Shown here: piece after piece, positions 3,529 through 59,926 of the stretch
Layout: every line of letters starts with the position of its first letter
How positions within the stretch are numbered: position 1 is the stretch's first letter
DNA from: an uncultured virus (IMG/VR IMGVR_UViG_3300049847_000281)
Lineage: Duplodnaviria; Heunggongvirae; Uroviricota; Caudoviricetes
DNA: 64,000 bases
Direction: 5' to 3' (one strand)
Virus record (IMG/VR): IMGVR_UViG_3300049847_000281
Made by a program: the position numbers and the translations under genes
The notes under the pieces: generated by a model
Databases searched by the model: none
Told to the model about the DNA's origin: nothing
What the model saw: only the letters and a program-made list of their open reading frames with translations

Positions 3529-3618
3529 AAAAGAAAATACGCCACGAAACACCATTGAACTACAACACATTAGATAATTTTGAATAGTGCAACTATGTAC
3601 TAATCAGTCACTTACAAA

Positions 3619-3645
3619 AATAATTTAGAATCATTCTAAATTATT
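3619..3645. promoter_or_regulatory. perfect 13-1-13 palindrome, Fur-box-like operator
   Basis: AATAATTTAGAAT-C-ATTCTAAATTATT. Confidence 0.65.
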
Positions 3646-3694: not shown

Positions 3695-4000
3695 TTGATA
3701 GCCAGCAAAATACGAACATATTTTAGGCAAAAAAAACACCTTGAAAAAACATTGCTGGGGGTTATTTCTTTGGGTGAATTCAACCTTCTTTGCACCATTG
3801 CAACCAGCAAAGAAATTTGCACGGTGAGCAGCATACGCAAAGCAACGCGCATGAATGAACGGCAACTGAACGAATATCTCAAGCGGTTAACAGATACGCA
3901 GCTACTCAGCCGCGAGAGTGCGCGCACAGCGAGAGGCATACGATATATCTTCACTCTCAGCACAGAGGGCGAAAGGTTAATTTCTGCGGCATTGCTATAA
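3695..4000 (+). CDS. MarR-like winged-helix protein
   Basis: EFNLLCTI...TVSSIRKATRMNERQLNEYLKRL...LLSRE...IFTLSTEGERL. TTG start is uncertain. Confidence 0.6.
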   Translation: MIASKIRTYFRQKKHLEKTLLGVISLGEFNLLCTIATSKEICTVSSIRKATRMNERQLNEYLKRLTDTQLLSRESARTARGIRYIFTLSTEGERLISAALL

Positions 4001-4163
4001 ACTCAACTTTTGTAATTGATATTCAGTTAATTAGCGATGCGTTATTTTTTCTTGTAAGTATACTGATAATCAGCGACATTTATTTTAATTGGTATTGATA
4101 GTCAGCGACTTAAGTCACAAAAATAATTTGGATTAGGTGATATTTGTTTCCGTACTTTGCCCC

Positions 4164-4448
4164 GCAATCGAAAGGTTGCATCTCAGCCGAAAGGTGAAAT
4201 AAGAGAGACGGAAAGTAGACCGTTTGGCGAAAGGGAAGGTAGACAAAGCTAACGCAGAACCTTCAGAATCCTCAAGAACCCTCAAATGTGTGTTGCGAAT
4301 ATGAAAAGCAACGGGCAGCTACTACGAGACCCTCAAATAGAGGCAACCGTAAATTTTCAAAGGTAAAAATTTGTTAACTCCGCTGGGGCAATCATTCATT
4401 CCCACCAGCGGGAACGGTAACACCCGTTCGTTCAAAGTCAGTTGAAAT
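4164..4448 (+). ncRNA. candidate structured 5' leader RNA of the cassette array
   Basis: ORF-free. Hairpins GCAATC-GAAA-GGTTGC, CC-GAAA-GG, CCGCTGG..CCAGCGG and GAACGG-TAACAC-CCGTTC, plus repeated GA(A)CCCTCAA-like units. Confidence 0.4.
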
Positions 4449-4508
4449 GTGATGACGGGGCGCGTATTTTGCGCCTCGTAAACAACTAACAATCAAAAAT
4501 TTACACCA

Positions 4509-5429
4509 ATGAAAAAAGTAGTTACACATTCTGAGGTTGCTCACATGTGGGCAAATCAGACGCAAGAGGAGGCGCGAACTCCTCACGGAAATTTTTATTT
4601 CTACGGCAAAACTATCTACAGCTACGGGCGGCATTTCCCTATTGCTACGCTGATAGATGACACCGTAATTTTAACCGAACGCAGCTACAGCAACACTACA
4701 GCGGGGCACGTGCAAGACGTGAGACGCGCAGCAAGCCACAAGCCGCAAATTTTGTGTTACGAAGTTCCCGACACGAAAAAGGACACCAGCGCACATGAAA
4801 AGAACTTCGAACGCTGGGCGCAAGACGTGCGCGAAAACGTCAAGTCTCTTGAGAGAGCGCGCAAGCCCGAAATTTACGTTGGAAACATTCAACGCACCAT
4901 TGAAAAAGTTGAAAAGTATTGCAAGTTTTTCAATCTCAAACTTACCGCAGCGCAAAAGGTAGTTTTCACTCTCAGAGAGACCGCAAACTACAAAGAACTT
5001 TTAGCACTTGAGGCACACAAAAAACAACTCTTCGAAAAGAACATTCGCAGCACGGGCGCAAAGGTTTACGAACAAAGTATTGCAGCATGGAAGCAAGGCA
5101 GCGAAACAAACTTTCGTAAACAACTCACAGAGCGGCAAAAAAATCTTCTCACAGAGTATACGAAACTCACCGACCGCAACACGACTTTTTTAAGAGTGAC
5201 GGAAAGCGAAGTTGAAACCAGCAAAAGTATACGGCTACCGTTCGAAGTAGCTGAGAGATATTACCGCTGGTACAGAGCGACCGCAGCCAAAGGAGGATGC
5301 AATGGCGAATGTAACTACGAAATTTTGGGCTACAGCGTTACTGAGGCATCTGAGGCGCGCTTAGTGGTGGGTTGCCATGACATAAGCCGCGCAGAGATTG
5401 ACGCGCTGGCAGCGGCTTTAAAGTGGTAA
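4509..5429 (+). CDS. cassette 1 hypothetical phage protein
   Basis: 306 aa, starts at repeat 1. Confidence 0.85.
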   Translation: MKKVVTHSEVAHMWANQTQEEARTPHGNFYFYGKTIYSYGRHFPIATLIDDTVILTERSYSNTTAGHVQDVRRAASHKPQILCYEVPDTKKDTSAHEKNFERWAQDVRENVKSLERARKPEIYVGNIQRTIEKVEKYCKFFNLKLTAAQKVVFTLRETANYKELLALEAHKKQLFEKNIRSTGAKVYEQSIAAWKQGSETNFRKQLTERQKNLLTEYTKLTDRNTTFLRVTESEVETSKSIRLPFEVAERYYRWYRATAAKGGCNGECNYEILGYSVTEASEARLVVGCHDISRAEIDALAAALKW

Positions 5430-5507
5430 CACGGGCAAAACAAATGTGATGACGCTGGGCGTATGTTTGCCCAGCGGAAACAACTAACAATTTAAAAATT
5501 TACTACT

Positions 5508-5681
5508 ATGAAAACTATTTCGTTAACCGAATTTATCCGCGCCAACCGTGCGGACATTGACGCAGCTATTAAGCGCGTAGTTCCTAACTGTAGACTCGAT
5601 GACGCAGAGCGTAGAATGTGGATATTGAATGATGAGGGGCTTTACCGCTGGGCGAAGAGCGAAGGAGTACGCAGCATTTAA
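5508..5681 (+). CDS. cassette 2 small protein (57 aa, absent from ORF track)
   Basis: MKTISLTEFIRANRADIDAAIKRVVPNCRLDDAERRMWILNDEGLYRWAKSEGVRSI; ATG ends repeat 2. Confidence 0.85.
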   Translation: MKTISLTEFIRANRADIDAAIKRVVPNCRLDDAERRMWILNDEGLYRWAKSEGVRSI

Positions 5682-5752
5682 CCGCGTCCGCATGTGATGA
5701 CATTGCCCTACGCTGGGCAATGTAAACAACTAACAATCTAAAACTTACACCA

Positions 5753-6427
5753 ATGAAAACCGTAAAAGTAAAAGTGTTTTCACTCTCTGAACTGAGTGAG
5801 AAAGCCCAGCAGCGCGCACATGATGACTATCAAAGCACTCATGACGAAATTGCATGGTCTGACGAAAACCGTCAGACGCTGGAAGCATTCGAAAAAGTGT
5901 TTCCTATTCAAATTACCGATTGGTCTTATGGCGGACGCGGGGAGGGCGTTACCTTTCGTTCTGATATGGACGGGAAGGTAGAAGAACTTTCGGGCGTGCG
6001 GCTGGCAACCTATCTTTGGAATAACTACAAAAACCAACTTTTTGAAGAGAAGTATTACAAGTCATGGCAGACGTTAACCCGTGTATCTCACAAGAAAGTT
6101 AAGAGTGAAAAAATGACCAAAGAAACGGGCTGGACGAACCCCGAAGTATTGGGAAAGTATTGGAACAAGTACAAAGGGCTGCAATTAGAGCATAGCTGCG
6201 TTCTAACGGGATATTGCATGGACGATGAGATATTAGACCCTATTTACGCGTTCCTCGACAAGCCGCGAAACATAAACTTTCTCGACCTCCTCGAAGAGTG
6301 TTTTGACGCATGGATTAAAGCATGCAACCGAGACGTAGATTATCAGAATAGTTTTGAGTATTTTGAAAAGGAGGCAGAGGCGAATGATTATGAGTTTCTT
6401 GAGAGCGGAAAGCGCAAATGTTTCTGA
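5753..6427 (+). CDS. cassette 3 hypothetical protein (FxELSxxAxxxA family)
   Basis: 224 aa; N- and C-terminal motifs shared with cassette 7. Confidence 0.85.
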   Translation: MKTVKVKVFSLSELSEKAQQRAHDDYQSTHDEIAWSDENRQTLEAFEKVFPIQITDWSYGGRGEGVTFRSDMDGKVEELSGVRLATYLWNNYKNQLFEEKYYKSWQTLTRVSHKKVKSEKMTKETGWTNPEVLGKYWNKYKGLQLEHSCVLTGYCMDDEILDPIYAFLDKPRNINFLDLLEECFDAWIKACNRDVDYQNSFEYFEKEAEANDYEFLESGKRKCF

Positions 6428-6479
6428 GTGATGACACGGGGCAACCCGTGTAAACAACTAACAATTAAAACCTTACACC

Positions 6480-6830
6480 ATGAAAAAGACAATCAGCAGA
6501 AAACTCACCTACGTGCGTACAGACGGCTGGCGCGGGTACGAGAAACCCGTGAACTCTATCTGCGGGGCGAATGACACGGGCACGTACAGCGACTCACCGT
6601 GCCCCTCAGACGTATGCGAGAGCGAATTACAGACGTGCCGCGACATGTTACGCAAAGCGAATATAGCGTACATACAGATGACTTGCAACACGTCAAACGT
6701 CTTCTGCGTTCACCGTTACCTTTGCGTGCATCCCAGCGACCGCAAAGCAGCCGTAGCCCTATTGCAGCCGCTTGTGGCTGGCACGCGCTTACTGTACGTA
6801 GAACCCGAAGAGATTACCAGCGAAAAGTGA
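6480..6830 (+). CDS. cassette 4 Cys-rich hypothetical protein
   Basis: 116 aa; stop is the TGA of repeat 5. Confidence 0.85.
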   Translation: MKKTISRKLTYVRTDGWRGYEKPVNSICGANDTGTYSDSPCPSDVCESELQTCRDMLRKANIAYIQMTCNTSNVFCVHRYLCVHPSDRKAAVALLQPLVAGTRLLYVEPEEITSEK

Positions 6831-6883
6831 TGAGTGCCGCAGCTATGCGGCATTAAACAACTAACAATTTAAAATTTACTACC

Positions 6884-7210
6884 ATGAAAAAAGTATTCAT
6901 TCAACTCAACAAAAGTGTGATGATGGGCTATTGTTATTGGCTGATTCTCAGCGATGACAAAAAGGAGGCATTGAAAGCCGACCTACAGTTCTCAACAGGC
7001 AAAGGTGACTACAAGGAATTCGATACGCTGGCGGACGCTATGACCTACGCCAAAGAACAGGGCTGGCACGTTACAGCCCATACCAGCGTATCGTACCATC
7101 TTCAAAACCGTTTCCTCAGCGTTTACATTGACGAAGCACTCAGCGCAACGTATGAAGACACCAAAGCCAAGCAAGTGGCGGGGCTATTGCTGGAAGACTA
7201 CGGCATTTAA
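6884..7210 (+). CDS. cassette 5 hypothetical protein
   Basis: 108 aa after repeat 5. Confidence 0.85.
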   Translation: MKKVFIQLNKSVMMGYCYWLILSDDKKEALKADLQFSTGKGDYKEFDTLADAMTYAKEQGWHVTAHTSVSYHLQNRFLSVYIDEALSATYEDTKAKQVAGLLLEDYGI

Positions 7211-7269
7211 CTTTGTGATGACGGGCGCGCATGCGTCCGTAAACAACTAACAATTTAAAACCGAAACCT

Positions 7270-7758
7270 ATGAAAAACAAAATCTTAAACCAGCTACACG
7301 CCAACTCTCACAAGATGACCTTATCAGACGTTATCGAAGTCATTGCAGAGTGCCGCAGCGAAGTGCTACGCAAGTCATTCAGAGGCGAAATGAATTCGCA
7401 CCATGTGAACGCATTGCACCGCATGCACATGCAATTTCCCGAAATAGCCGAAGCACTTGAGCAGCACAAAAAGCGCAAGAGTACCGCGCTGGAAACGTGG
7501 CAAGAGAAGTACAAGCCCGTTAACAACCCGCTCACACGGGGTAACGCCTACGGCAACACGTTCTTTGAGTCACACGGCAAGGAGGCGGCATACGTGCGCA
7601 AGCATGCAGCCAAGCACCCTAACACCGTGTGGACGTACTTAACAGGCGATGGCGATGTGATTCAAAGCGGCATCCATACCGTGAACCGCTACGGCTACTT
7701 CATTACCGAAGTGCCGTATGAAGAGGGCGACACCATTACCGTAAACCTTGAAAAGTGA
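7270..7758 (+). CDS. cassette 6 hypothetical protein
   Basis: 162 aa; stop is the TGA of repeat 7. Confidence 0.85.
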   Translation: MKNKILNQLHANSHKMTLSDVIEVIAECRSEVLRKSFRGEMNSHHVNALHRMHMQFPEIAEALEQHKKRKSTALETWQEKYKPVNNPLTRGNAYGNTFFESHGKEAAYVRKHAAKHPNTVWTYLTGDGDVIQSGIHTVNRYGYFITEVPYEEGDTITVNLEK

Positions 7759-7811
7759 TGACACGGGCGCAGCAGCCCGTGAAAACAACTAACAATCTAA
7801 ACTTTACACCA

Positions 7812-8123
7812 ATGAAAACAGCAACAATCAATCTTTATCAGTTCTCAGAACTGAGCAAAGAAGCAAAGCAATTAGCTTTCAACGAACACGAAGAGTTTCT
7901 CCTCTCCGTAGGACAGGAATGTGAAAACGAAGACGGGGAAATGGTAACAGAATACGAGGAAACCATTGACGAAAAAATAGTCATTGAGAGTCTTGAAATT
8001 AACGCCTATTACTTTTTCGCAGACGGCAAATTGGCATCTTGCACTACGTACACAGGCGACCATCCAAGAGCGGGGGAAGAGGAGATGAGACTACACGGAG
8101 AAACCTACCCTCTCCAAAAGTGA
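7812..8123 (+). CDS. cassette 7 acidic protein (start corrected from 7755)
   Basis: ATG at the end of repeat 7; MKTATINLYQFSELSKEAK...; 103 aa. Confidence 0.85.
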   Translation: MKTATINLYQFSELSKEAKQLAFNEHEEFLLSVGQECENEDGEMVTEYEETIDEKIVIESLEINAYYFFADGKLASCTTYTGDHPRAGEEEMRLHGETYPLQK

Positions 8124-8176
8124 TGAGCGCGCCCGTGCTGGCGCGTTAAACAACTAACAATCTAAATTTTACTACC

Positions 8177-8635
8177 ATGAAAAAGCCAACAACCAAATTA
8201 ACCGCAGCCGAGCAAAAGCAAGCTACAGCGGAGGGGTGGGGAGTGTTCCTCAACACCGACACCAGCAAGTTAGAGATACAGCGGCTGGACGAAGAGGCGA
8301 AGTTCAAAAGCGATGACGAAGCCGTTGCGTTCATTACAGCACAGGCGGAGGGCGGCAGCGCGTTACACGTCAAAGCACTTCAGATAGTGCCGCAGCGCGA
8401 ACTCCTCACCGTTACAGAGGGCTTACGCAACTCACTTGTGAAGATGATTGAAACCCGCTGCATTGTCAACGGGGTGAAGAAGGGCAGCAAGCGGCACATT
8501 CACTTGCAAGCCGAGATTCTCATTGCCGCGTGCCATACCCTCGACTACCTCAACGGTACGCCAGCTACCAGCAGCGTAACGCCTGAGATTTACTTCTCAA
8601 TTTTGAGGGGTGATTTACTTACCGAGAAAGTGTGA
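8177..8635 (+). CDS. cassette 8 hypothetical protein
   Basis: 152 aa; stop within repeat 9. Confidence 0.85.
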   Translation: MKKPTTKLTAAEQKQATAEGWGVFLNTDTSKLEIQRLDEEAKFKSDDEAVAFITAQAEGGSALHVKALQIVPQRELLTVTEGLRNSLVKMIETRCIVNGVKKGSKRHIHLQAEILIAACHTLDYLNGTPATSSVTPEIYFSILRGDLLTEKV

Positions 8636-8688
8636 TGACGGCAGCCCTTTAGCTGCCGTAAACAACTAACAATTTAAAACTTAAACCT

Positions 8689-9279
8689 ATGAAAAAGAAA
8701 CAATTTCTACTGAATGTAGCATGGAGCAGAGAAGCGTACACGCTACAGCAATCAAAGGGCTGGAAGAAAGCCCTCAAAGGTGAGGCATGCGAAACCATTT
8801 CATTTGCAACCAAAGCAGAGCGAACCGCCTACATGAAAGCGTTAGGCGATGGAAGCGGCTGGATTGAACCATTCTGCGAAGCCGTCCCCGACAAGCCGAA
8901 GGGAAAGACCGCAGAGCAGCTACTCAAGCTATACCCCGAAGCGAAGGAGATGATTGAGTACCTTACGGGCAAAGAGCAGCACTACTCATTCAGAGGCGAC
9001 CGCACTATTGACGCGCTGGGCGCTGGCGAATTCTTCTACAATGCAGAGGGGCTGGATTATTACGTGTTCGATTCGCTGGAGAAGACCATCAAATGTTTCT
9101 TCTCAGACACGCGCTGCAACCGTTACGAACACGCCTCAGCGTATTATTCGTACAGCAGCTACCTTTCCAAACTGAAAGACGGAGAAGTGTTGCTGGATGA
9201 ATACGGCAACGTGGGCTTCTGCGATTTCACCAATGAAGACTTCACCCCGAAGCAGATTCGTAAAGCACGGGAGGAATAA
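8689..9279 (+). CDS. cassette 9 hypothetical protein
   Basis: 196 aa after repeat 9. Confidence 0.85.
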   Translation: MKKKQFLLNVAWSREAYTLQQSKGWKKALKGEACETISFATKAERTAYMKALGDGSGWIEPFCEAVPDKPKGKTAEQLLKLYPEAKEMIEYLTGKEQHYSFRGDRTIDALGAGEFFYNAEGLDYYVFDSLEKTIKCFFSDTRCNRYEHASAYYSYSSYLSKLKDGEVLLDEYGNVGFCDFTNEDFTPKQIRKAREE

Positions 9280-9339
9280 TGTGATGACCATGTGCCAGCT
9301 GGCGCATGGTAAACAACTAACAATTAAAAACTTACACCT

Positions 9340-9627
9340 ATGAAAAACACAATCAAAGCAGCACTCGAAAAGATGCTCATCCCTACCCGCGTGTGGGTGG
9401 TAACAAACGAAGAGAACACGCTCATTGCCGTAATAGGGGCAGATAACGGGCATGAATTCGAAAGCAAGTTAGCGATAGCCACCGCTGAACACTACGATGC
9501 AGATACGGTAGTTACGCTCAACGACTACAACGAGATGCAGGGGCGTTTAAAAGCCACCGTAAAGATTACCAGCGATGGAGACACCTACACCGAAGAACTA
9601 CGCATACAGTTTACCGCAAGGTACTGA
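9340..9627 (+). CDS. cassette 10 hypothetical protein
   Basis: 95 aa; stop abuts repeat 11. Confidence 0.85.
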   Translation: MKNTIKAALEKMLIPTRVWVVTNEENTLIAVIGADNGHEFESKLAIATAEHYDADTVVTLNDYNEMQGRLKATVKITSDGDTYTEELRIQFTARY

Positions 9628-9679
9628 GTGATGACGGGGGCGCACGCCCTCGTAAACAACTAACCAAAAATTCAATCCA

Positions 9680-9898
9680 ATGGAAGCAACAACCGCAGCA
9701 AAGCAAAAGTTCATCGAAAAGATGGAAGCCCATTTCGGGGGAATACTCGCCAACTTCACCATCGAAGAGGTGGGTGAAGAGACTATCTATTCCCTCTTCA
9801 AGAGTGGCGCAATGGAAGAGGTGGCATGGTTTAACAACGGCTCACAGAAGGGCGTGATGGAGGGGGCTGATATGGAAGACGATGACGAAGAAGAGTGA
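9680..9898 (+). CDS. cassette 11 small acidic protein
   Basis: 72 aa ending MEDDDEEE; stop within repeat 12. Confidence 0.85.
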   Translation: MEATTAAKQKFIEKMEAHFGGILANFTIEEVGEETIYSLFKSGAMEEVAWFNNGSQKGVMEGADMEDDDEEE

Positions 9899-9951
9899 TG
9901 ACAGCCGTACACAGTCGGCTGGAAACAACTAACAATTAAAAACTTACTACT

Positions 9952-10125
9952 ATGAAAACCAAACCAACCAAAACCGAGATTGCACTCGCATCCAAAGTCT
10001 TTTACAATCTTCACTATCAGGGAATGCTAACTCCCGAACAGGAGTCTTTGCTGGAGAATGCAACAGAAGTAATGGAGCAAGCAGGGCTGCTTGACGAAAA
10101 TGGAGAGCCAATTACGGAAGACTAA
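9952..10125 (+). CDS. cassette 12 small protein (57 aa, absent from ORF track)
   Basis: MKTKPTKTEIALASKVFYNLHYQGMLTPEQESLLENATEVMEQAGLLDENGEPITED. Confidence 0.85.
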   Translation: MKTKPTKTEIALASKVFYNLHYQGMLTPEQESLLENATEVMEQAGLLDENGEPITED

Positions 10126-10184
10126 CCGCACCAAAGTGATGACGGGCGCACAGCCCGTAAACAACTAACTTAAATTTTCAACCT

Positions 10185-10535
10185 ATGGCAACATTATTAA
10201 ACAGAACCAAGCGCACCAAGAACGGGGGGCTTGCACCGTCCAACGTCACGCGGGAACTCGTCAGCACGGGGCATAAGAACCGTCCGCTCATCTGTTCCCT
10301 TGAGATGGGCGACTACCTCACCTTTCGTGCGAAGGGGACACGTACCAAGTACACGATACACCTCAAGAACGTGTACTACCTTGCGATGATGAAGTACATA
10401 CAGGAACGGTATGAGAAGAAACTTGAGAAGTACAAAGACCGTAAAGCCGCTGGGCTGCGTGCCGTCCGTCCGTCCAAACCACGATTGGTGGGGGTGGGGG
10501 CAGATACCCTCTCAGCACTTGCGATGAAAGCGTGA
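10185..10535 (+). CDS. cassette 13 basic hypothetical protein
   Basis: 116 aa; stop within repeat 14. Confidence 0.85.
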   Translation: MATLLNRTKRTKNGGLAPSNVTRELVSTGHKNRPLICSLEMGDYLTFRAKGTRTKYTIHLKNVYYLAMMKYIQERYEKKLEKYKDRKAAGLRAVRPSKPRLVGVGADTLSALAMKA

Positions 10536-10590
10536 TGACGGGAGAGTTTATCTCTCTCGGAAACAACTAACAATCTAAAATCAAAAACCT

Positions 10591-11136
10591 ATGAAAAAGA
10601 CAACAATGTGTGTATGTGTTATCAACCCCGATAACATAGAATTCGAAGGGGCTTTCAAAGACCTTTCAGACAAAGATGTTCTGCGTTTGGCGAGAGCCGC
10701 TAACGAAGTCTATCCGCTCAAGCAATTCGAAAGTCTCTTTAACGCGGAAATGCTGCCGATAGGAAATGCGTTCATTCGCTTTCTCGAAGTAGACGAATAT
10801 GAACTGTTTGAACAGAAGTTATTCGAAAAGTACGGAGTAGAAACTCACGCTATGCTCATGGACAAAATTACCGATGAAGAAGACGCAAAGCTAAATGCAC
10901 TCTCGGTACAGGGCAAAGCAGCGCGTCCCACAATTACCATCAAGAACATCGAAAGTTCCATCGCTTCACAACTTCCGCTCACGGGCGCATGCGCCTCCGA
11001 ACTCAGGCGCGAAGGAGTGAAAGACGGAGACACTTACCAAGCCGAAAAGAACAGCGGAGAAAACGGCATGTGGATTACCGCGCCAAGCGGGGCTACGTGT
11101 GTGGTGTATACAGACTTCTTTGAGGTGACAGAGTGA
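10591..11136 (+). CDS. cassette 14 hypothetical protein
   Basis: 181 aa; stop within repeat 15. Confidence 0.85.
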   Translation: MKKTTMCVCVINPDNIEFEGAFKDLSDKDVLRLARAANEVYPLKQFESLFNAEMLPIGNAFIRFLEVDEYELFEQKLFEKYGVETHAMLMDKITDEEDAKLNALSVQGKAARPTITIKNIESSIASQLPLTGACASELRREGVKDGDTYQAEKNSGENGMWITAPSGATCVVYTDFFEVTE

Positions 11137-11192
11137 TGAGTGGCGGCTTTATGCTGCCATTAAACAACTAACATTTTAAAACCAAATACACA

Positions 11193-11864
11193 ATGAAAAA
11201 AAGAGTAACAACTGCCGAGAAATTGGCAGCAGAGTTTCGCGCTAAAGTAGCGCAGACTAAGTACGCGATACAGGAGAAGTATCAGCGTAAACTTCAGTTA
11301 GAACTACGCTGGACGGTGAGCAAAGGACGCGACACCTACGGGTATAACATCTGCACGCTGTTTGTGAACGGGATAAAAGCCGCAGCATGCAACGGAGGAG
11401 GTTATGACATGCAGGGGACGAGCGTAGGTAATTGGATGGCAACAGCTTTTCCCGAACGGCTGTACAACATGGTGAAAGAGCCGCATTACGGTCTTTCGTT
11501 TCACAACCCCACGTTTAACGTGATGGAAGAGAGACTTGAGAAGTCAGACGGATGCTTCACCGACAAAGAGGATGAAGGCAAGACCTTTGCCGAGTTGAAA
11601 GCGGCTGGGAAAATTGTCGACCTCGACATTCACAGGGCATGGTACAGAGGCAGCAGCAAGACACCTACGGAAAAACATCTCTACGGGCTTATTGACGGGG
11701 CAAGCGGCAGGAGTTCGGTGCAGAAGATAGGCGAGACCATCGGATTGAAGTTTGAGTACATCAACACGCGCTCAAAGAACGATACGCTGTACACCGTGTA
11801 CGACTACGTGAAGGAAGAGAGCGTAGGGCATCCCGCAAAGGAGGTAGAGCATGAGAAAGCGTAG
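11193..11864 (+). CDS. cassette 15 hypothetical protein
   Basis: 223 aa after repeat 15; GGGYDMQGT motif. Confidence 0.85.
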   Translation: MKKRVTTAEKLAAEFRAKVAQTKYAIQEKYQRKLQLELRWTVSKGRDTYGYNICTLFVNGIKAAACNGGGYDMQGTSVGNWMATAFPERLYNMVKEPHYGLSFHNPTFNVMEERLEKSDGCFTDKEDEGKTFAELKAAGKIVDLDIHRAWYRGSSKTPTEKHLYGLIDGASGRSSVQKIGETIGLKFEYINTRSKNDTLYTVYDYVKEESVGHPAKEVEHEKA

Positions 11865-11952
11865 ACGCAAGATAACACCGTTCACGTGGGCGGTGCTGCT
11901 CCTCTCGGCTGGCTGCCTCCTCTTGCTGCAATGGCTTACACGTGCCAAGTGA
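11851..11952 (+). CDS. 33-aa membrane micropeptide
   Basis: MRKRRRKITPFTWAVLLLSAGCLLLLQWLTRAK; AGGAGGT upstream; stop is the TGA of repeat 16. Confidence 0.6.
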   Translation: MRKRRRKITPFTWAVLLLSAGCLLLLQWLTRAK

Positions 11953-11996
11953 TGACTACCTCCAAAGAGGTAGTAAACTACTAACAATTACACACC

Positions 11997-12182
11997 ATGA
12001 AAAATCAAACCACCATTAACTTCACCAAAGAGAAAGTTGAAGAACTGCGTAAGTTGTACAACCATGCTGTTGAAAACAAAATCGAACTGTTTCAGTTTGA
12101 GGGCAACGACATCCTTACCGAATTCGCAAAGTACATGCTACAGTACCTCGATTCAAAGTTTAAAAATTCCAAACTCAACTAA
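11997..12182 (+). CDS. cassette 16 small protein
   Basis: 61 aa after repeat 16. Confidence 0.8.
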   Translation: MKNQTTINFTKEKVEELRKLYNHAVENKIELFQFEGNDILTEFAKYMLQYLDSKFKNSKLN

Positions 12183-12186
12183 CCTC

Positions 12187-12567
12187 ATGAAAAAAATTAT
12201 CATCAGCGGAAAGCCCTATTGGTACAATCCAAAGCTCGGCTTTCTGTTCTACGACTTTAAAATGACCAAGCAGGTAGTGATGGGCATCTTCAACGCGCAA
12301 GAGCATGCCTCGTTCCTTGAGCAGATTGCACGCAAAGAGACCGACCCGAAGACGCTGGAAAGTTTGATGCTCAAGCACGGGAAGGTTGGCGAAGTCTTCT
12401 TCTCTATGCGCGAGGACAGACTGATTACAGCAGCTGCAAACTATTACAAGCGTACCGTCACTACCGAGCGCATGCTACTCGTCAGCAGCGCGAAGGCAGA
12501 ACCTACCGCAGAGTATATCACAAAAGTAACACTAACCTCTAATTTAAACAGCGATGAAATCAAGTGA
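12187..12567 (+). CDS. hypothetical protein (start MKKIIIS)
   Basis: ATG 5 nt after the previous stop. Confidence 0.7.
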   Translation: MKKIIISGKPYWYNPKLGFLFYDFKMTKQVVMGIFNAQEHASFLEQIARKETDPKTLESLMLKHGKVGEVFFSMREDRLITAAANYYKRTVTTERMLLVSSAKAEPTAEYITKVTLTSNLNSDEIK

Positions 12568-12838
12568 ACTCAATCTATGGCACTCCATGCCTGCACCACC
12601 GCAGCACATGCGCCATCGCTGCTCCCAATGCAAGCGACCGCTGGCGGTGGAACTGCAAACCGAAAAGTACAACGCAGAACTGAGTGATGTGATAACACAC
12701 ATTCAGAAGACGGGAAAGAAGATGAAGCGCGGGAAAGTGCTGCGGTGGCGTTACAAGTCGCAAGGGCATTTCTGCACCTACCGATGCGGAACCATCTTTG
12801 CAAATAAAACAGTTGATAATCTAAACTCACGTTACTAA
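12554..12838 (+). CDS. zinc-finger-like small protein
   Basis: CSQC...FCTYRC. Confidence 0.6.
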   Translation: MKSSELNLWHSMPAPPQHMRHRCSQCKRPLAVELQTEKYNAELSDVITHIQKTGKKMKRGKVLRWRYKSQGHFCTYRCGTIFANKTVDNLNSRY

Positions 12839-12851
12839 CAATCCAAACTAC

Positions 12852-13142
12852 ATGTCAGACACCACCGACCCGAAAAACAAAACCTACCGCGTGTATTACC
12901 TCCCCGTAGGACGCATGCCCTCGCTCATCAGAGCCGAGCGCATGCGCAAGGAACTCACGCTGGAACAGCTGTCAAAACTTACCGGGTGTACACAGCCGCA
13001 CCTCAGCAACATAGAATCAGGCGAGACCATGCCTACGCTGGACACGCTGGAAGTCATCTTCACCGCTCTCAACATTAAACTCTTCTCATCGCGTCATTAC
13101 GCGGGGCAGAAGAACCACGATGTGCAGATAGAAGGTGAATAA
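12852..13142 (+). CDS. XRE-family HTH regulator
   Basis: IRAERMRKELTLEQLSKLTGCTQPHLSNIESGETMPTLDTL. Confidence 0.9.
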   Translation: MSDTTDPKNKTYRVYYLPVGRMPSLIRAERMRKELTLEQLSKLTGCTQPHLSNIESGETMPTLDTLEVIFTALNIKLFSSRHYAGQKNHDVQIEGE

Positions 13143-13181: not shown

Positions 13182-13189
13182 TATATTTG
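13182..13189 (+). promoter_or_regulatory. Bacteroidota -7 promoter element
   Basis: TATATTTG upstream of ATG 13215. Confidence 0.55.
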
Positions 13190-13439: not shown

Positions 13440-13452
13440 GGTGGGCAAAAAG

Positions 13453-13481
13453 ATTCGCCCCCCACAGGGCGGATTTTTTTT
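13453..13481 (+). terminator. intrinsic terminator
   Basis: ATTCGCCC-CCCACA-GGGCGGAT followed by a T-tract. Confidence 0.75.
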
Positions 13482-13500: not shown

Positions 13501-13535
13501 TAACCACTAACCACTAACCACTAACCACTAACCAC
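13501..13535 (+). repeat. (TAACCAC)x5 tandem repeat abutting a start codon
   Basis: Five exact 7-mers, then ATG 13536. Confidence 0.95.
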
Positions 13536-13778
13536 ATGTCAAAAAACGACCAGCTCCAGCAAGCCATCGAAAAACAATTTCCCGACTGCATGGTGTTCTT
13601 CTCCGATGAGCCGTTCACCATCCTCGACAGCGATGTGAAGCCGCTAACTATCAAAGAGCAGCAGGTGTTCATCAAAATTTACCGCGCACAGGGCAAGCAC
13701 AAGCCCGTGCTGCGCTTTTCTCTCCGCTGCGGGGCATTGCCGCGCAGATTCAAGAAGGTGATTATAATCGAATCCTAA
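13536..13778 (+). CDS. hypothetical protein
   Basis: 80-aa ORF. Confidence 0.65.
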   Translation: MSKNDQLQQAIEKQFPDCMVFFSDEPFTILDSDVKPLTIKEQQVFIKIYRAQGKHKPVLRFSLRCGALPRRFKKVIIIES

Positions 13779-22522: not shown

Positions 22523-22831
22523 TTAATTGTTTTTACTTCTTAGTTTATACTGTGCTTTAGTTCCTTGGTCATACAGTCTGTGGCACGTGAAACATAGTAA
22601 CTGTATATTGTCCTTTTCCAGTCTTAATTCAGGGTGCGCACCCTTGCTTTTTATGTGAGCGAAGAAAACTACATTCAGCTCATCGCCTAAATTAGAGCCG
22701 CAGTTCACGCAGTGGTGCCAGCGCTCTTTCCATATCTCCTCAAACATCGCCAGCTCCCCGGTCGGCTCCCGCAGCTTCACACCTAATCGCGCTTTGTTGC
22801 ACGTCAGGCAGAGCATGCGCCCACGGTTCAC
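22523..22831 (-). CDS. HNH/NinG-like nuclease
   Basis: CVNCG...FAHIKSKGAHPELRLEKDNIQLLCFTCH. Confidence 0.8.
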   Translation of the reverse strand: MNRGRMLCLTCNKARLGVKLREPTGELAMFEEIWKERWHHCVNCGSNLGDELNVVFFAHIKSKGAHPELRLEKDNIQLLCFTCHRLYDQGTKAQYKLRSKNN

Positions 22832-26303: not shown

Positions 26304-26376
26304 GGTCTCGTAGCTCAACTGGATGAGCATCTCGCTACGGACGAGAAGGTTAAGGGTTCGAATCCCTTCGAGACCT
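26304..26376 (+). tRNA. tRNA-Arg(ACG)
   Basis: Acceptor GGTCTCG/CGAGACC, anticodon arm TCTCG-CTACGGA-CGAGA, T-arm AAGGG-TTCGAAT-CCCTT; no CCA. Confidence 0.92.
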
Positions 26377-26384
26377 CAGAAACG

Positions 26385-26626
26385 AGATGACCACAGGATA
26401 ACCATAAAAAAAAGTCAAGACTCAACTAATTAAGAATCAACACATCAATCCGTCTTGAATAATACACATGGCAATTATATTTCAGTACATGTCGATACAA
26501 ATCAAAGACATTCGTATATTTGCACCGCGATTAAATCAAAATCAAAGACAAACGAACTTACAACAAGACTACAAAAGACATGCAGGATGACCATAGGATG
26601 ACCAAATTTAAAAAACAGGATGACCA
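26385..26626 (+). mobile_element. attP-like region with integrase arm-type direct repeats
   Basis: GATRACCA-type repeats at 26385-26404 (x2), 26583-26604 (x2) and 26616-26626, with AAATCAAAGACA repeats between, directly upstream of int. Confidence 0.6.
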
Positions 26627-26654
26627 AATAATTTAACTCTTAAATACACACACA

Positions 26655-27920
26655 ATGGCTACTTTAAAATTTATCATTCGCACAGCTGAAAACAAAGACG
26701 GCAGCTACTCAATCCGTCTCCGGGTAAGCAAAAATAAAGAGACGTTTTTTGTCCCCACAACATGTACCATCTTCAACCCCGACAAATGCTGGGATAAGGC
26801 AAAAGGGGGTGTCACCAAAGCGTGCCCGAACGGGAACGAACTAAACTTCCAGCTCACCGAACTGAAGCAGAAAGTTCAGCGACAAATCTTCGACCTTGAG
26901 CGCGACAACCCCGGTATCAGCGCCCTTCAAATCCGCGACATCATCCAGCGCAAAGAAGCAGATGTGGATTTCATAAAAATGTTCCGCGCACACATCGAAA
27001 CAAAAAGAACTTTAAATAGCGCCACGTACCTTACCTTCCACACACATCTTCACAACATCGAAGAGTACATCAACGGAAGGCGCTTGAAAGCCGGGGAAGA
27101 TTCCAAGCCGCTGCCGATACATAAAATTACACCGTACTGGCTGGCTGATTTTCAAAGATGGTGTCTCGAAAAAAAAGGGTTGGTGCAAAACACAGTTGGT
27201 ACACACCTCACCGACATCCGCACCATCATCCTTCAGGCGATTGCAAACAAGTACATCAAGCGCGAAGCAAATCCATTTCTTGAATTCAAAGTAAGCCGTG
27301 GAGACCGCAAGAAAAAAATTCCGCTCACCGCTGAGGAAGTCGAAGCTATCAGAACGCTGGCTACCGATGAGCGCTTGGACTGGTGGTCTCACCACACCAA
27401 GAACGCCTTTATCTTCGCACATCTCAACGCAGGGATGCGTACATCAGATGTTACGATGCTGAGATGGAGAGATGTCACCAATCAGTTCTACACTCCGCGC
27501 AAGACAAAAAACAAAATGAAGGTGTTGCCACTGCTGCCGAACACTATCTCGCTTGCCATCCTCAAGGAGTACGAACACCGCAACACTTCCCCTGATGCGT
27601 TTGTATTTCCGTTCATGGACAGAGAACTCAAGTGGGCTGAAACGAAAGAGCATGCAGAGATGTATAAAATTAAAGACACCACACGCTACCTCAACACGGC
27701 TCTCAAGAAGCTGGCTCGTTGTGCCGGTATTAACAAGGACATCTCCACGCACATCGCACGCCACAGCTTCGCATACAAAGCAATGCAGGGCGGATTAACT
27801 GCCGTGCAGCTTCAGGGTTTATTCAACCACAGCTCTACGCAGATAACGCAGAGCTACATGAACAACATCATGAACGCAGACTACACCAAGGGGCTGCTCG
27901 ACCGCGCTGTCGGTGCGTAA
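26655..27920 (+). CDS. int: tyrosine integrase (Bacteroidota arm-binding / SAM-like / catalytic)
   Basis: N-terminal KDGSYSIRLRV; catalytic GMRTSD, HIARHSFA, FNHSS and TQSY (R-H-R-H-Y). Confidence 0.93.
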   Translation: MATLKFIIRTAENKDGSYSIRLRVSKNKETFFVPTTCTIFNPDKCWDKAKGGVTKACPNGNELNFQLTELKQKVQRQIFDLERDNPGISALQIRDIIQRKEADVDFIKMFRAHIETKRTLNSATYLTFHTHLHNIEEYINGRRLKAGEDSKPLPIHKITPYWLADFQRWCLEKKGLVQNTVGTHLTDIRTIILQAIANKYIKREANPFLEFKVSRGDRKKKIPLTAEEVEAIRTLATDERLDWWSHHTKNAFIFAHLNAGMRTSDVTMLRWRDVTNQFYTPRKTKNKMKVLPLLPNTISLAILKEYEHRNTSPDAFVFPFMDRELKWAETKEHAEMYKIKDTTRYLNTALKKLARCAGINKDISTHIARHSFAYKAMQGGLTAVQLQGLFNHSSTQITQSYMNNIMNADYTKGLLDRAVGA

Positions 27921-27924
27921 AAAA

Positions 27925-27946
27925 ATCTGTTAGTTGTTTAACGGAT
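27925..27946 (+). other. hairpin containing the reverse complement of the cassette-repeat core
   Basis: ATCTGTTA-GTTGTT-TAACGGAT; TGTTAGTTGTTTA (27928-27940) is the reverse complement of TAAACAACTAACA. Confidence 0.7.
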
Positions 27947-27947
27947 A

Positions 27948-27973
27948 GGGGGAGAGAAATCTTCCCCTTTTTT
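27948..27973 (+). terminator. intrinsic terminator after int
   Basis: GGGGGAGA-GAAA-TCTTCCCC followed by a T-tract. Confidence 0.8.
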
Positions 27974-28262
27974 ATTTTACCTTCAGGCAACCCGAATAGT
28001 CAATCTTAATTTCCGTGCTGTCTGCCGATGCCTTCACCAAGTAGAAACGCACCTGAGAGCCGCTGTAATTGATTACAGCACCGTTGGTGAGCAAGGGGAT
28101 TAAACTGTCCGTCCTCAACATCAGCGATGCCGTACCGGAAACACAGAGCGTGTTGTTCACGTAACTTACCGATGGCGCATCAGCAGCCGTCTCTACCGAT
28201 ACAAATTTTTTCGAACAGCTCGTCAGTGCCGCAACAGAGAGTAATAACAAAATTTTTTTCAT
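27972..28262 (-). CDS. lipoprotein
   Basis: MKKILLLLSVAALTSC lipobox. Confidence 0.75.
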   Translation of the reverse strand: MKKILLLLSVAALTSCSKKFVSVETAADAPSVSYVNNTLCVSGTASLMLRTDSLIPLLTNGAVINYSGSQVRFYLVKASADSTEIKIDYSGCLKVK

Positions 28263-51454: not shown

Positions 51455-52057
51455 CTAAGATTCTTGATGGGTTACCTCCGTTTCAGTTTTAAATTTCCAC
51501 TTATATCCAAAAGCCGTTTTTCTTCTTCCGTGCAAAGCCCTGCTGATACAGGTATTGTGATAGCCAAGTTTGTGCTGCACATCTACAACAGAATCAAATT
51601 CATTTATCACGTTATCCCTTAAGTCAGTTTGAAGAACAGGCTTCGAGGAGCCGCTATCTTTGCCAAACTTTCCTTTTGCCGGACTTTCTTGTCCCAAAAT
51701 ATGATAAGAATGAAGTGTATTTTCAGAGCGAGTACACCATTCAAGATTTTCTGCTCGGTTATCAATTTTTATTCCATTGATATGATTGACCTCTTTTCTC
51801 AAACTATCATCTTGTAAAAAAGATTTTGCCACAAGCCTGTGTACCCTTACAGCTTTTTGCTTTCCTTCGATTGGCATAATGTTCGCGTATAAATACCCGT
51901 GAACAAGCCCTTGTGCAATCATTTTTTCGTAACCATAAAAAACGGACTTTATTCTTCCGAAATTACTTACAGTATAGTAGCGCGGATAACCAACTATAGG
52001 TTTCCACTCTTCCCCCGGAATGTCTTCAATACTTTTATTCTTCCAGTGTTCCATCAC
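51455..52057 (-). CDS. NUMOD4-HNH-NUMOD1 homing endonuclease
   Basis: EEWKPIVGY..YTVSNFGRIKS, VHRLVA, VNHINGIKIDNRAENLEWCT and TAFGYKWKF. Confidence 0.92.
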   Translation of the reverse strand: MMEHWKNKSIEDIPGEEWKPIVGYPRYYTVSNFGRIKSVFYGYEKMIAQGLVHGYLYANIMPIEGKQKAVRVHRLVAKSFLQDDSLRKEVNHINGIKIDNRAENLEWCTRSENTLHSYHILGQESPAKGKFGKDSGSSKPVLQTDLRDNVINEFDSVVDVQHKLGYHNTCISRALHGRRKTAFGYKWKFKTETEVTHQES

Positions 52058-59824: not shown

Positions 59825-59852
59825 ATCTCTTGGTTTTTAGTTTTGTCTTTCG

Positions 59853-59926
59853 TAGCGGGAGGCGGACTCGAACCACCGACATCCTGATTATGAGTCAGGT
59901 GTTCTGACCAGCTGAACTACCCCGCG
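59853..59926 (-). tRNA. tRNA-Met(CAT)
   Basis: CGCGGGG...TCCCGCT-A; anticodon arm CCTGA-CTCATAA-TCAGG; T-arm GGTGG-TTCGAGT-CCGCC. Confidence 0.9.

Follow-up and report, generated by a model that had tools for sequence, protein, structure and literature searches.

The 64-kb window analysed here, part of a 73.7-kb contig, comes from an uncultured freshwater phage that is a divergent, probably temperate relative of the crAss-like phages. Its + strand carries 16 consecutive cistrons, each headed by a copy of one composite element. The cistron bounds (4509..12182) were taken from the ORF list, the translations and the stop positions. All 16 copies listed below match the search pattern exactly and contain a stem, and their scores are those of the covariance model described in the text.

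4127..4160, +, putative promoter of Bacteroidota type that would serve the entire array, TTTG-N22-TACTTTGC, from a motif match
4165..4448, +, non-coding stretch of about 285 nt with several GAAA-loop hairpins, between the candidate promoter and copy 1
4449..4508, +, copy 1, 75.3 bits, no ORF upstream; cistron 4509-5429
5446..5507, +, copy 2, 68.1 bits; cistron 5508-5681
5694..5752, +, copy 3, 71.4 bits; cistron 5753-6427
6428..6479, +, copy 4, 64.4 bits; cistron 6480-6830
6827..6883, +, copy 5, 77.9 bits; cistron 6884-7210
7215..7269, +, copy 6, 70.5 bits; cistron 7270-7758
7755..7811, +, copy 7, 74.7 bits; cistron 7812-8123
8120..8176, +, copy 8, 73.1 bits; cistron 8177-8635
8632..8688, +, copy 9, 82 bits; cistron 8689-9279
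9281..9339, +, copy 10, 71.9 bits; cistron 9340-9627
9628..9679, +, copy 11, 62 bits, shorter leader, ATG GAA; cistron 9680-9898
9895..9951, +, copy 12, 77.2 bits; cistron 9952-10125
10136..10184, +, copy 13, 57.9 bits, shorter leader, ATG GCA; cistron 10185-10535
10532..10590, +, copy 14, 65.1 bits; cistron 10591-11136
11133..11192, +, copy 15, 62.9 bits; cistron 11193-11864
11851-11952, +, hydrophobic ORF of 33 codons within cassette 15
11949..11996, +, copy 16, 50 bits, box AAACTACTAAC, leader of 22 nt; cistron 11997-12182
12187..13142, +, three hairpin-less cistrons after the array, ACTAAC 3-17 nt 5' of each ATG
13447..13480, +, canonical intrinsic terminator (A-tract, 14-pair stem, T-run), the first strong one 3' of the array
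27929..27939, -, orphan exact AAACAACTAAC, 9 nt past a GGGGAAGA/TCTCTCCCC hairpin, at the junction of the integrase module

A first-pass annotation had described 16 cassettes, each headed by an element of 48-62 nt. We searched the window for the exact pattern GTGATGA-N(10-36)-AAACWACTAAC, and all 16 sites, every one on the + strand between 4449 and 11996, fit the narrower form GTGATGA-N(16-25)-AAACWACTAAC; the length from GTGATGA through the base preceding the ATG is 48-62 nt, as claimed. In 100 dinucleotide-preserving shuffles the pattern was never matched (chance expectation 0). GTGATGA and the 11-mer box together show a single substitution in 288 positions across the 16 copies, and the box is invariant in 15 of them, while the gap between the two varies from 16 to 25 nt and the longest exact identity between copies is only about 20-25 nt. 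A covariance model made from the copies scores them at 50-82 bits. Since its best additional match in the window reached just 15.8 bits, the window holds no further complete copy, in agreement with the annotation. The orphan box at 27929-27939 has neither GTGATGA nor a gene behind it. Comparison with Rfam gave no family, and in membership tests the defining features that were tested for PeSLs, attC sites, hammerheads and twisters were found for none of the four; the earlier remark that the element matches neither the integron nor the PeSL consensus therefore holds.

The hairpin is conserved in structure and not in sequence. Stems have 5-10 pairs and differ in all 16 copies, with loops of 2-8 nt. 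Over an 8-pair structure, 97.2% of 106 cells hold standard pairs, compared with 53.5% in shuffles, and the covariation score is 0.891 against 0.173, a value that none of 500 shuffles reached. Shifting the 3' partner by 1-3 columns lowers pairing to 34-44%, and RNAalifold independently predicted six outer pairs with compensatory changes in all six; the first impression of stems that vary in sequence and yet pair is confirmed. Nine G-T pairs occur on the + strand and no A-C pairs (two-sided binomial p = 0.004); they lie in copies 1, 5, 6, 8, 10, 11, 14 and 15, exactly the copies named beforehand as G.U-dependent. Because none of these pairs would serve the - strand, the data support, as had been proposed, that the hairpin is selected on the + strand as RNA, most simply as mRNA. 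The hairpins are not terminators: their tail is UAAAC and lacks a U-run, in contrast to the hairpin and T-run terminator at 13447 of the same phage.

In its properties, the 3' half of the element is like a translation start region. The leader, from AAAC to the ATG, measures 29 nt in 10 of 16 copies, and the leaders together contain one G in 454 nt, versus a background of 22-24%; in 14 of the 16 copies AAA follows the ATG. The leader is predicted to be unpaired with a probability of 0.77; for the region this value is 0.50 and for the hairpins 0.29. The 15 upstream ORFs stop at the first TGA of GTGATGA (8 cases) or 1-17 nt earlier (7 cases), and none of the 15 runs into the stem. The annotation had proposed a per-gene unit of RNA processing and translation and/or a shuffling joint. 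Two parts of this stand, namely a unit tied to its downstream gene (16 copies for 16 genes, each 5' of its gene, with no gene upstream of copy 1 and no copy 3' of gene 16) and a 3' half resembling a start region; RNA processing and shuffling would be further, putative roles.

The box is not specific to the hairpin, since further phage genes (449, 12187, 12554, 12852, 13536 and 50694) also have ACTAAC 3-18 nt 5' of their ATG, and AAACAACT occurs in the leader 3' of the canonical TATATTTG box at 13182. The last of the three hairpin-less cistrons encodes a Cro/CI-type HTH protein. In five of five distant relatives, AACTAA is enriched 6- to 10-fold within 35 nt 5' of gene starts, mostly 10-13 nt upstream, which points to a host-level signal. 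Complementarity of the leader to 16S rRNA, taken from an unrelated MAG, was not significant (equalled by 77 of 300 shuffles). PMC6847099 describes Bacteroidetes as starting translation without Shine-Dalgarno use, in unstructured regions with A at -3, -6 and -11 to -14. The leaders agree with this type of start region in being G-poor, A-rich and unstructured upstream of the ATG and in having a run of A around -11 to -14, and they are about as long as the median 5' UTR of the phylum, 24-32 nt (PMC6847099, PMC9723704). The host signal, however, is degenerate, whereas 15 of the 16 copies here share one unvarying 11-mer, which comes together with a hairpin and a 7-mer.

Transcription of the array may begin at the candidate promoter at 4127-4160, the only + strand match to TTTG-N(17-22)-TANNTTKY between 212 and 24664. 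Its N22 spacer and a -7 box of variant form count against it; for Flavobacterium, PMC9723704 describes the -7 box as TAnnTTGY. None of the 17 bipartite matches in the window falls on the + strand within the array, and the leader contains no TTTG; judged by these motifs, there is no promoter in the element. The stretch at 4165..4448 does not fold more stably than shuffles to a significant degree (z = -1.27) and gave no Rfam family.

The cargo proteins were described beforehand as mostly unrelated, and BLASTP agrees: the sole pair with E < 0.01 is cassettes 3 and 7 (27 residues, E = 0.002). The further proposal that they serve early host takeover or anti-defence gained no support. Matches in PHROGs were all of unknown function (phrog_7247, phrog_10310/5162, phrog_38215), those in Pfam were sub-threshold only, NCBIfam gave none, no protein fell into a named family, and a search of solved structures with the cassette 1 and 3 proteins gave no match. 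The family of the cassette 15 protein is widespread (355 matches), and among the matches listed the best non-self member is 62% identical. Close relatives of the phage share 69-77% identity in the MCP. The element was absent from the 11 relatives scanned de novo and gave no score in 28 relative records; conservation beyond the lineage therefore cannot support any function.

The explanation we favor, with a probability of roughly 0.55, is that the element is a 5' module carried by each cistron of one polycistronic mRNA, in which a stop for translation, a hairpin for insulation or processing and a standard start region free of Shine-Dalgarno sequence are combined. We infer a single transcript, an RNA cut and a trans-acting factor. 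Host RNA polymerase would start at 4127-4160 and produce a single long early mRNA, passing all 16 hairpins, which lack a U-run, and stopping at the terminator at 13447-13480. UGAUGA, or a stop just 5' of it, would end translation of the upstream gene and leave the stem free of ribosomes, so that the GC-rich hairpin could re-form and insulate the next start region from the upstream coding sequence. The hairpin probably also acts as a protective cap and as a landmark for an endonucleolytic cut yielding stable single-gene messages. The G-free, single-stranded leader, mostly of 29 nt, would be a Shine-Dalgarno-independent landing pad for ribosomes, bearing AACUAA, an A-run at about -10 to -14 and AUG AAA. 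Whatever the stem length (16-25 nt between), the hairpin would set the invariant, single-stranded GUGAUGA beside NAAACAACUAAC, and this folded junction may be read by a single trans-acting factor, either an RNase or a regulator that binds RNA, from host or phage.

The RNase III sites of the T7 early genes offer a parallel, in that hairpins at each gene boundary of a polycistronic early mRNA are thought to give stable single-gene messages. The likeness is in the punctuation, one hairpin per gene boundary. However, the hairpins of T7 are irregular and long, spanning about two turns of helix, whereas the stems here, at 5-10 pairs, are too short for RNase III and have invariant single-stranded flanks. 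The strictness of GTGATGA and the 11-mer exceeds what ribosome-leader contacts usually need and is typical of phage-polymerase promoters or nuclease sites, which counts against the 5' module.

A distinctly less likely alternative, to which we would give perhaps one chance in a handful, is a series of composite terminator/promoter cassettes like the PeSLs of T4-type phages. The hairpin would end or attenuate the upstream transcript, AAACAACTAAC with its 18-nt spacer would be a phage-specific promoter, and each gene would be its own transcription unit. Near-invariant blocks at a fixed 29 nt 5' of the ATG do resemble promoter sets of phage RNA polymerases, and copy 1 is complete with nothing upstream. 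The polymerase could be an unrecognised phage enzyme, one encoded in the other 9.7 kb, or host polymerase redirected by a phage factor. However, searches of the 64 kb with Pfam, PHROGs and NCBIfam named neither a phage RNA polymerase nor a sigma factor (the other ~9.7 kb of the 73.7-kb contig could encode one), no large ORF matched DFDxD in any frame of the window, and D.D.D, for which five large ORFs were scanned, is missing from the 3450-aa ORF, which looks like a polyvalent virion protein resembling LPD38 polyvalent proteins. The box also occurs in leaders 3' of a canonical host promoter and directly 5' of other ATGs, AACTAA before starts is common to the five distant relatives, the variable gap is unfit for a rigid double-stranded bipartite promoter, and the hairpin has no U-run for termination.

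Coliphage N4 is a precedent for hairpin promoters; its early promoters P1-P3 are reportedly read by an injected virion RNA polymerase on the template strand and have 3-nt loops. Similarities are the short hairpin with conserved flanks 5' of early genes, the podovirus type and a giant virion protein of ~3500 aa. In the present phage, by contrast, it is the non-template strand that the G-T asymmetry favors for the hairpin, loop lengths span 2-8 nt, and neither a polymerase motif nor similarity to a polymerase was seen in the giant ORF. For phi14:2, 10.1101/2020.03.07.982082 gives no detectable common upstream motif for the early transcripts of the injected polymerase, which leaves that promoter type undefined and to that extent favors a promoter here. 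PeSLs, as PMC4122927 portrays them, likewise are composite repeats between small, variable, mostly unknown early ORFs, with a stem-loop of variable sequence 5' of a conserved expression signal. They differ in pairing a sigma-70-type -35/-10 promoter with a stem-loop described as a terminator (same source); the element has no host-type promoter motif and no U-run, its conserved 3' half behaves like the leader of an mRNA, and nothing in PeSLs corresponds to the conserved GTGATGA. The defining behavior of PeSLs is shuffling, and the likeness drawn here is one of arrangement.

We consider it unlikely that the element serves mainly as a joint for DNA recombination, the phage equivalent of integron attC sites or PeSL shuffling, whose conserved flanks or folded + strand would be the substrate for ORF capture, loss and reordering. 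Such a joint would suit an array of unrelated small ORFs in one orientation, separated by hairpins conserved in structure and variable in sequence, as well as the orphan box at the edge of the integrase module and a consensus box and leader with stops in each of the three frames. Four of the seven relatives closest in MCP fall in a contig size class of 76-78 kb; for none of the 120 listed matches to the cassette 15 protein is the longest contig of that size, which suggests patchy acquisition. In run X2, one low-depth contig leaves the window at 5483, inside box 2, with departing letters not in the window; however, repeats of ~20-25 nt break assembled contigs, making this weak evidence, and runs X1 and X2 are otherwise identical to the window, with no altered cassette order among them. 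Integron arrays resemble this one in their promoterless ORFs behind one upstream promoter (a candidate here) and in inter-cassette sites that favor one strand. However, exact identity between copies is short, and the two flanks of the element cannot pair with each other and so provide no R''/R' boxes. Complementary RYYYAAC/GTTRRRY core sites and an IntI-type integrase are lacking, it is the coding strand that is favored, and the blocks that are conserved are positioned outside the stem. The phage has an ordinary arm-binding tyrosine recombinase of Bacteroidota type as its integrase, adjoining a tRNA gene, and the translation-related features require an RNA role anyway.

Least probable of all, at very long odds, is a small catalytic or autonomous RNA motif by which each unit might self-cleave: GUGAUGA-helix-NAAAC resembles the hammerhead CUGAUGA-stem II-GAAA core as well as the internal loop of a type-P3 twister, invariant single-stranded nucleotides flank a covarying helix, and Rfam twister-P3 aligns copies 1 and 5 (21.0 and 20.2 bits) via guGAnGA-hairpin-UAAac, but these are two of 16 copies far under the gathering score of 39.9, with P1 and P3 mispaired in copy 1, hammerhead models gave no match even at E = 10, the C3 equivalent is G in 16 of 16, at the G12 equivalent 12 copies have U, three have G and one has A, and the G-free leader gives no second or third helix and no consistent loop-leader pseudoknot was seen. 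If the element is indeed the 5' module of each cistron, a single long message could use it to express many genes unrelated to one another, in a host that dispenses with ordinary ribosome-binding sites.

In the 64-kb window, the pattern GTGATGA-N(10-36)-AAACWACTAAC is matched exactly 16 times. Every match is on the + strand, within 4449-11985, and the pattern did not occur in any of 100 shuffled sequences. The ATG of a small ORF lies 11-20 nt after each match, and the unit, measured from GTGATGA to the base before ATG, is 48-62 nt in size. The first-pass annotation had described just such an array of 16 gene cassettes, and this description holds. The stretch between the fixed blocks is occupied by a hairpin that directly abuts GTGATGA on its 5' side and is separated from AAAC by 1 nt on its 3' side, with a stem of 5-10 pairs and a loop of 2-8 nt that differ in every copy. 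The array and the other features of the window are as follows:

4127-4160 (+), candidate array promoter, a match to the bipartite promoter pattern ~290 nt upstream of copy 1
4165-4448 (+), ~285 nt of non-coding sequence before copy 1, with several short hairpins that have GAAA loops
4449-11996 (+), 16 copies of the element (GTGATGA, variable hairpin, 11-mer box AAACWACTAAC and leader to ATG)
4449-4508 (+), copy 1 of the element, with no ORF upstream
4509-12182 (+), cassettes 1-16, small cargo genes with one copy of the element before each
11193-11864 (+), cassette 15
13447-13480, first strong canonical terminator downstream, a 14-pair hairpin with a T-run
22523-22831 (-), the second HNH gene of the window, small
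26304-27920 (+), tRNA-Arg(ACG) followed immediately by the integrase gene, within a - strand region
26655-27920 (+), tyrosine integrase
27929-27975 (-), orphan exact AAACAACTAAC, preceded by a GC hairpin at a distance of 9 nt and followed by a T-run, located where a - strand gene has its 3' end, directly against the integrase stop
32138-42490 (-), 3450-aa ORF behind the muzzle-like gene
51455-52057 (-), HNH/NUMOD homing-endonuclease gene within the virion gene block
59852-59926 (-), second tRNA (Met)

The stems differ yet pair in every copy, as had been claimed from the sequence alone. When the 16 copies were aligned on an 8-pair helix, 97.2% of the 106 cells were standard pairs (53.5% when shuffled), and shifting one helix partner by 1-3 columns reduced pairing to 34-44%. 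The covariation score was 0.891 compared to 0.173 for shuffled alignments, none of 500 shuffles scoring as high, and RNAalifold independently gave the six outer pairs with compensatory changes in each. With a covariance model of the unit, the 16 copies scored 50-82 bits and the best score elsewhere in the window was 15.8 bits, in agreement with the claim that no complete element occurs elsewhere in it. The array is therefore real, clean and strongly structured. On the + strand the stems contain 109 Watson-Crick pairs, 9 G-T pairs and no A-C pairs (p = 0.004); a G-T pair formed on the - strand would read as A-C here. The fold energy summed over the copies with RNA parameters is also lower for the + strand (-196 vs. 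-164 kcal/mol). Therefore, the hairpin is selected on the sense strand, as was first proposed, either as mRNA or as single-stranded DNA of the non-template strand. Such selection disfavors a cruciform and also an N4-like template-strand promoter hairpin, since all 9 G-T pairs fall on the non-template strand and none on the template, the reverse of what an N4-type virion-RNAP promoter would show.

The 5' half of the element coincides with the end of the preceding gene. Among the 15 upstream ORFs, 8 have their stop codon within GTGATGA, the remaining 7 end 1-17 nt upstream of it, and no ORF enters the stem. GTGATGA is equally invariant where it does not serve as a stop, including copy 1, which has no ORF upstream; therefore, on sequence grounds, it must do more than stop translation. 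One element precedes each of the 16 genes, the first included, and none lies behind the last, so the unit belongs to the downstream gene. This ownership argues against a plain 3'-end stabilizer or terminator of the upstream gene.

The 3' half has the character of a translation start region. The leader, counted from the AAAC of the box to ATG, is near-constant and single-stranded, measures 29 nt in 10 of the 16 copies, and contains 1 G in 454 nt. Its predicted unpaired probability is 0.77 compared to 0.50 for the region, TAAAA forms an A-run at about -10 to -14 in most copies, and 14 of the 16 genes begin with ATG AAA. Start regions of Bacteroidia are described in PMC6847099 as unstructured and A-rich before ATG, with no SD and with A enriched near -11 to -14, and the leader agrees with this SD-independent type as characterized there. 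No GGAGG-type motif was found before the 59 gene starts inspected in the window. Complementarity between the leader and 16S rRNA was unremarkable, as 77 of 300 shuffles paired as well with the rRNA used, which came from an unrelated MAG and has an odd 3' end.

The box itself extends beyond the array. Its core motif is independent of hairpins: ACTAAC occurs 3-18 nt before other ATGs of the phage, and AAACAACT occurs in a leader downstream of a canonical TATATTTG box at 13182. In five of five distant relatives (the fetched phage records G004, G006, G007, G008 and G010; L235-L254), AACTAA ranks with the most enriched hexamers in front of genes. Over the 35 nt upstream of gene starts it is enriched 6- to 10-fold, mostly 10-13 nt upstream of ATG; the hexamer often lies right behind a TAnnTTTG box and is seldom the stop codon of the preceding gene. 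AACTAA may mark start regions or 5' ends, either in this phage group or in its hosts, and by this distribution the box appears to contain a host-level start-region signal. Some five tandem copies of the heptamer CCACTAA (ACTAACC) lie at 13503-13535 (+), and the last one stops 3 nt short of the ATG at 13536. In X1 and X2, the two DNA runs that contain the stretch, numerous other contigs match just the 35 bases of this repeat and then break, so the repeat seems common in these samples.

The phage genes of the window include virion PHROGs, a terminase, an HK97-type capsid protein and a 1796-aa ORF with a crAss-type muzzle C-terminal domain. The tyrosine integrase has a Bacteroidota-style architecture (Arm-DNA-bind_5, Phage_int_SAM_5 and Phage_integrase), and its position beside tRNA-Arg suggests a temperate lifestyle. 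Given this gene content and the gene starts lacking GGAGG, the host is probably a member of the Bacteroidota and the crAss-related phage is probably temperate.

Transcription of the array appears to begin upstream of copy 1. Bacteroidota promoters are described in PMC9723704 as having a -33 TTTG and a -7 TAnnTTTG box, and with its single G the leader cannot hold the TTTG of either. The bipartite pattern has 17 matches in the window and none on the + strand inside the array, while TANNTTTG alone has five matches on the + strand between 4449 and 12182, at unrelated places. No T-run follows the hairpin in any of the 16 copies, the tail being (U/G/A)AAAC in all of them, and a terminator scan, which did pick up the 14-pair hairpin with T-run at 13447, reported none of the 16 hairpins. 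The simplest reading is a single transcript from ~4165 to ~13480, which would hold 16 punctuated cistrons and a few without hairpins. The non-coding region 4165-4448 has no Rfam match; together with the rest of the 900 bases upstream of the array, it is not conserved in 31 relative records. Two copies of a ~30-nt repeat (…TCAG..AC…CAAAAATAATTT.GA…) lie 500 bases apart, at 3598-3630 and 4100-4135. Each contains a - strand TATTTTTG box, and they may be leftward promoters or operators beside the small winged-helix-like ORF at 3695-4000.

The evidence in this phage leans to a role of the element in RNA. Ribosomes of the upstream gene would halt at or before UGAUGA, after which the hairpin would re-form some 30 nt ahead of the next AUG, close to the upstream limit of a 30S footprint, and would shield the landing pad from upstream sequence. 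GTGATGA and the box are 16-25 nt apart in the linear sequence and become adjacent once the stem forms; this variable distance combined with adjacency in the fold suggests that a single factor recognizes the folded junction. The most likely use would be a cut at the junction, giving each gene its own message with the hairpin at one end. What we observe is the anatomy; both the cut and the factor we infer from it. In the fullest form of this proposal, to which we give a probability of roughly 0.2, the folded junction, in which any stable stem brings GUGAUGA and NAAACAACUAAC together, would be recognized by a dedicated endoribonuclease or RNA-binding switch, much as CRISPR repeats are by Cas6, and the flanks would also serve as gene-capture joints.

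The T4 PeSLs and the T7 RNase III sites are precedents for regulatory cassettes that recur between small early genes of phages. By analogy, the element may work most like PeSLs and T7-type intercistronic processing hairpins in an integron-array-like layout, although it shows the tested defining features of none of these. A PeSL has a host primary-sigma promoter (-35/-10, here its Bacteroidota counterpart) right after the stem-loop, which is absent here. PeSLs are further defined by indels and replacements that end at the elements when close relatives are compared, and the relatives reached here, at most 46% identical, lack the element. An intrinsic terminator has a U-run, which this GC-rich hairpin lacks. 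The stems are too short for an RNase III site and differ too much for CRISPR repeats. Inspection also excluded a kink-turn or C/D box reading of UGAUGA (there is no GA on the opposite strand) and a bacterial SECIS (tandem UGA, with stops in all frames past the stem). Within Rfam, only tRNAs exceeded gathering scores in the window, the element is not represented, and weak twister-P3 and C/D snoRNA matches were rejected.

A PeSL-like terminator/promoter unit read by an unrecognized polymerase is a possible but doubtful alternative. It would fit the strict conservation of the motifs. However, the spacing between the blocks is variable, the hairpin is on the wrong strand, the box is distributed like a leader signal, and no such polymerase was found in the 64-kb window. 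Pfam, PHROGs and NCBIfam identified no RNA polymerase or sigma family in it, and there was no PDB match to the N4 or phi14:2 RNAP at E up to 0.01. The 3450-aa ORF has a Zeta-toxin-like kinase domain (~residues 1098-1282) and an HExxH (HELSGH) zincin-type site (~residue 2460). Language-model features offer a lead, and nothing firmer, that it resembles LPD38-type polyvalent proteins. It lacks a DxDxD motif, and no large ORF of the window contains DFDxD. Its counterparts in relatives are 2348-3019 aa long; DFDxD is absent from the giant ORFs of five relatives, one of which has DMDDD. A crAss-type or N4-type virion RNAP within the window was rejected for lack of a motif, a PDB match and a family. 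The window's contig is 73,703 bases long, ~9.7 kb of it outside the window.

A primary role as a DNA joint is improbable, and its evidence is circumstantial. The cargo proteins are mutually unrelated; none of the 16 matches anything named in Pfam, NCBIfam or PHROGs, and a solved-structure search with cassettes 1 and 3 gave no match. The family of the cassette 15 protein is widespread and patchy: large and unnamed, it has 355 matches (E up to 0.001) whose contigs vary widely in size, one labelled as coming from an archaeal MAG, with a best non-self identity of 62%. One X2 contig ends inside box 2, and the orphan AAACAACTAAC beside the integrase module may be a relic cassette boundary. The core sites of attC are complementary, R'' (RYYYAAC) and R' (GTTRRRY) forming the base of the folded site. 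In contrast, the flanks GTGATGA and AAACAACTAAC are complementary only at GT/AC, and the only integrase in the window lies 14 kb from the array and, by the three domains named above, does not look like an IntI. With neither complementary core sites nor a PeSL promoter present, the first-pass statement that the element matches neither consensus is borne out.

A ribozyme is very unlikely, resting on resemblance to twister type P3 (RF03154; 21.0 and 20.2 bits in 2 of 16 copies against a gathering threshold of 39.9, a local match spanning only the hairpin and its internal loop) and to the hammerhead. A hammerhead has the core CUGANGA ... GAAA, three helices and cleavage at UH, whereas the element has a single helix and wrong bases at two essential positions (G in place of C3 in 16 of 16 copies, G12 kept in 3 of 16), and Rfam hammerhead models gave no match at E up to 10.

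We also searched for the element elsewhere. The array DNA had no blastn match among 50,697 phage records. The loose full pattern gave at least 113 single-copy chance matches in IMG/VR; a stricter pattern with AAT added gave none there and 24 single matches in JGI metagenomes, all at or below 30.6 bits by the covariance model and without arrays. The box-plus-leader pattern had 11 single matches in IMG/VR. Protein searches with cassettes 1 and 3 and the upstream phosphoesterase found no relative with the element; their single locus, L114, was set aside because it belongs to an unrelated phage that has GGAGG ribosome sites and lacks the element. MCP tblastn against the phage collection gave no match, and an MCP alignment search recovered 79 IMG/VR loci and 5 MAG contigs at 28-46% identity. 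The covariance model found nothing above 23.9 bits in 28 relative records, and k-mer and hairpin-flank de novo scans of 11 fetched relative genomes returned only tandem or coding repeats. G006 has a long tandem 12-mer array (GAGATTGTCCCN; - strand, ~6330-6540), and G007 has 10-mer tandem repeats (AAGTAGAGTA) within the terminal repeats at both contig ends. The element was thus not found in the relatives scanned, whose MCP identity is at most 46%. Seven closer relatives exist, with MCPs 69-77% identical and longest contigs of 5-78 kb, four of these at 76-78 kb. No RNA run was listed for the stretch; only X1 and X2 contain it, one of them probably its source, and both have it in near-identical form. 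So far the element is known from a single lineage of uncultured freshwater phage, and its reach is limited accordingly.

Finally, the element differs from PeSL and T7 cassettes in its RNA-strand selection and in having neither a promoter nor a terminator tail; it joins a stop and a hairpin to a start region of the kind standard in a host phylum where Shine-Dalgarno sequences are not used. Two strictly invariant single-stranded blocks joined by a free-form helix point to an RNA-recognizing factor, which would be worth finding. If a dedicated factor does read the junction, any ORF between two elements would be released by cutting as a uniform mRNA for that gene alone, its end defined, protected by a hairpin and already equipped with a Shine-Dalgarno-free start region, and the array would be an integron-like expression platform at the RNA level in a Bacteroidota phage. 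If our proposal is true, the array would show how many unrelated phage genes can be expressed from one message in Bacteroidota, and the element would be a small intercistronic module, easily moved between constructs, for the engineering of bacteria of this phylum.
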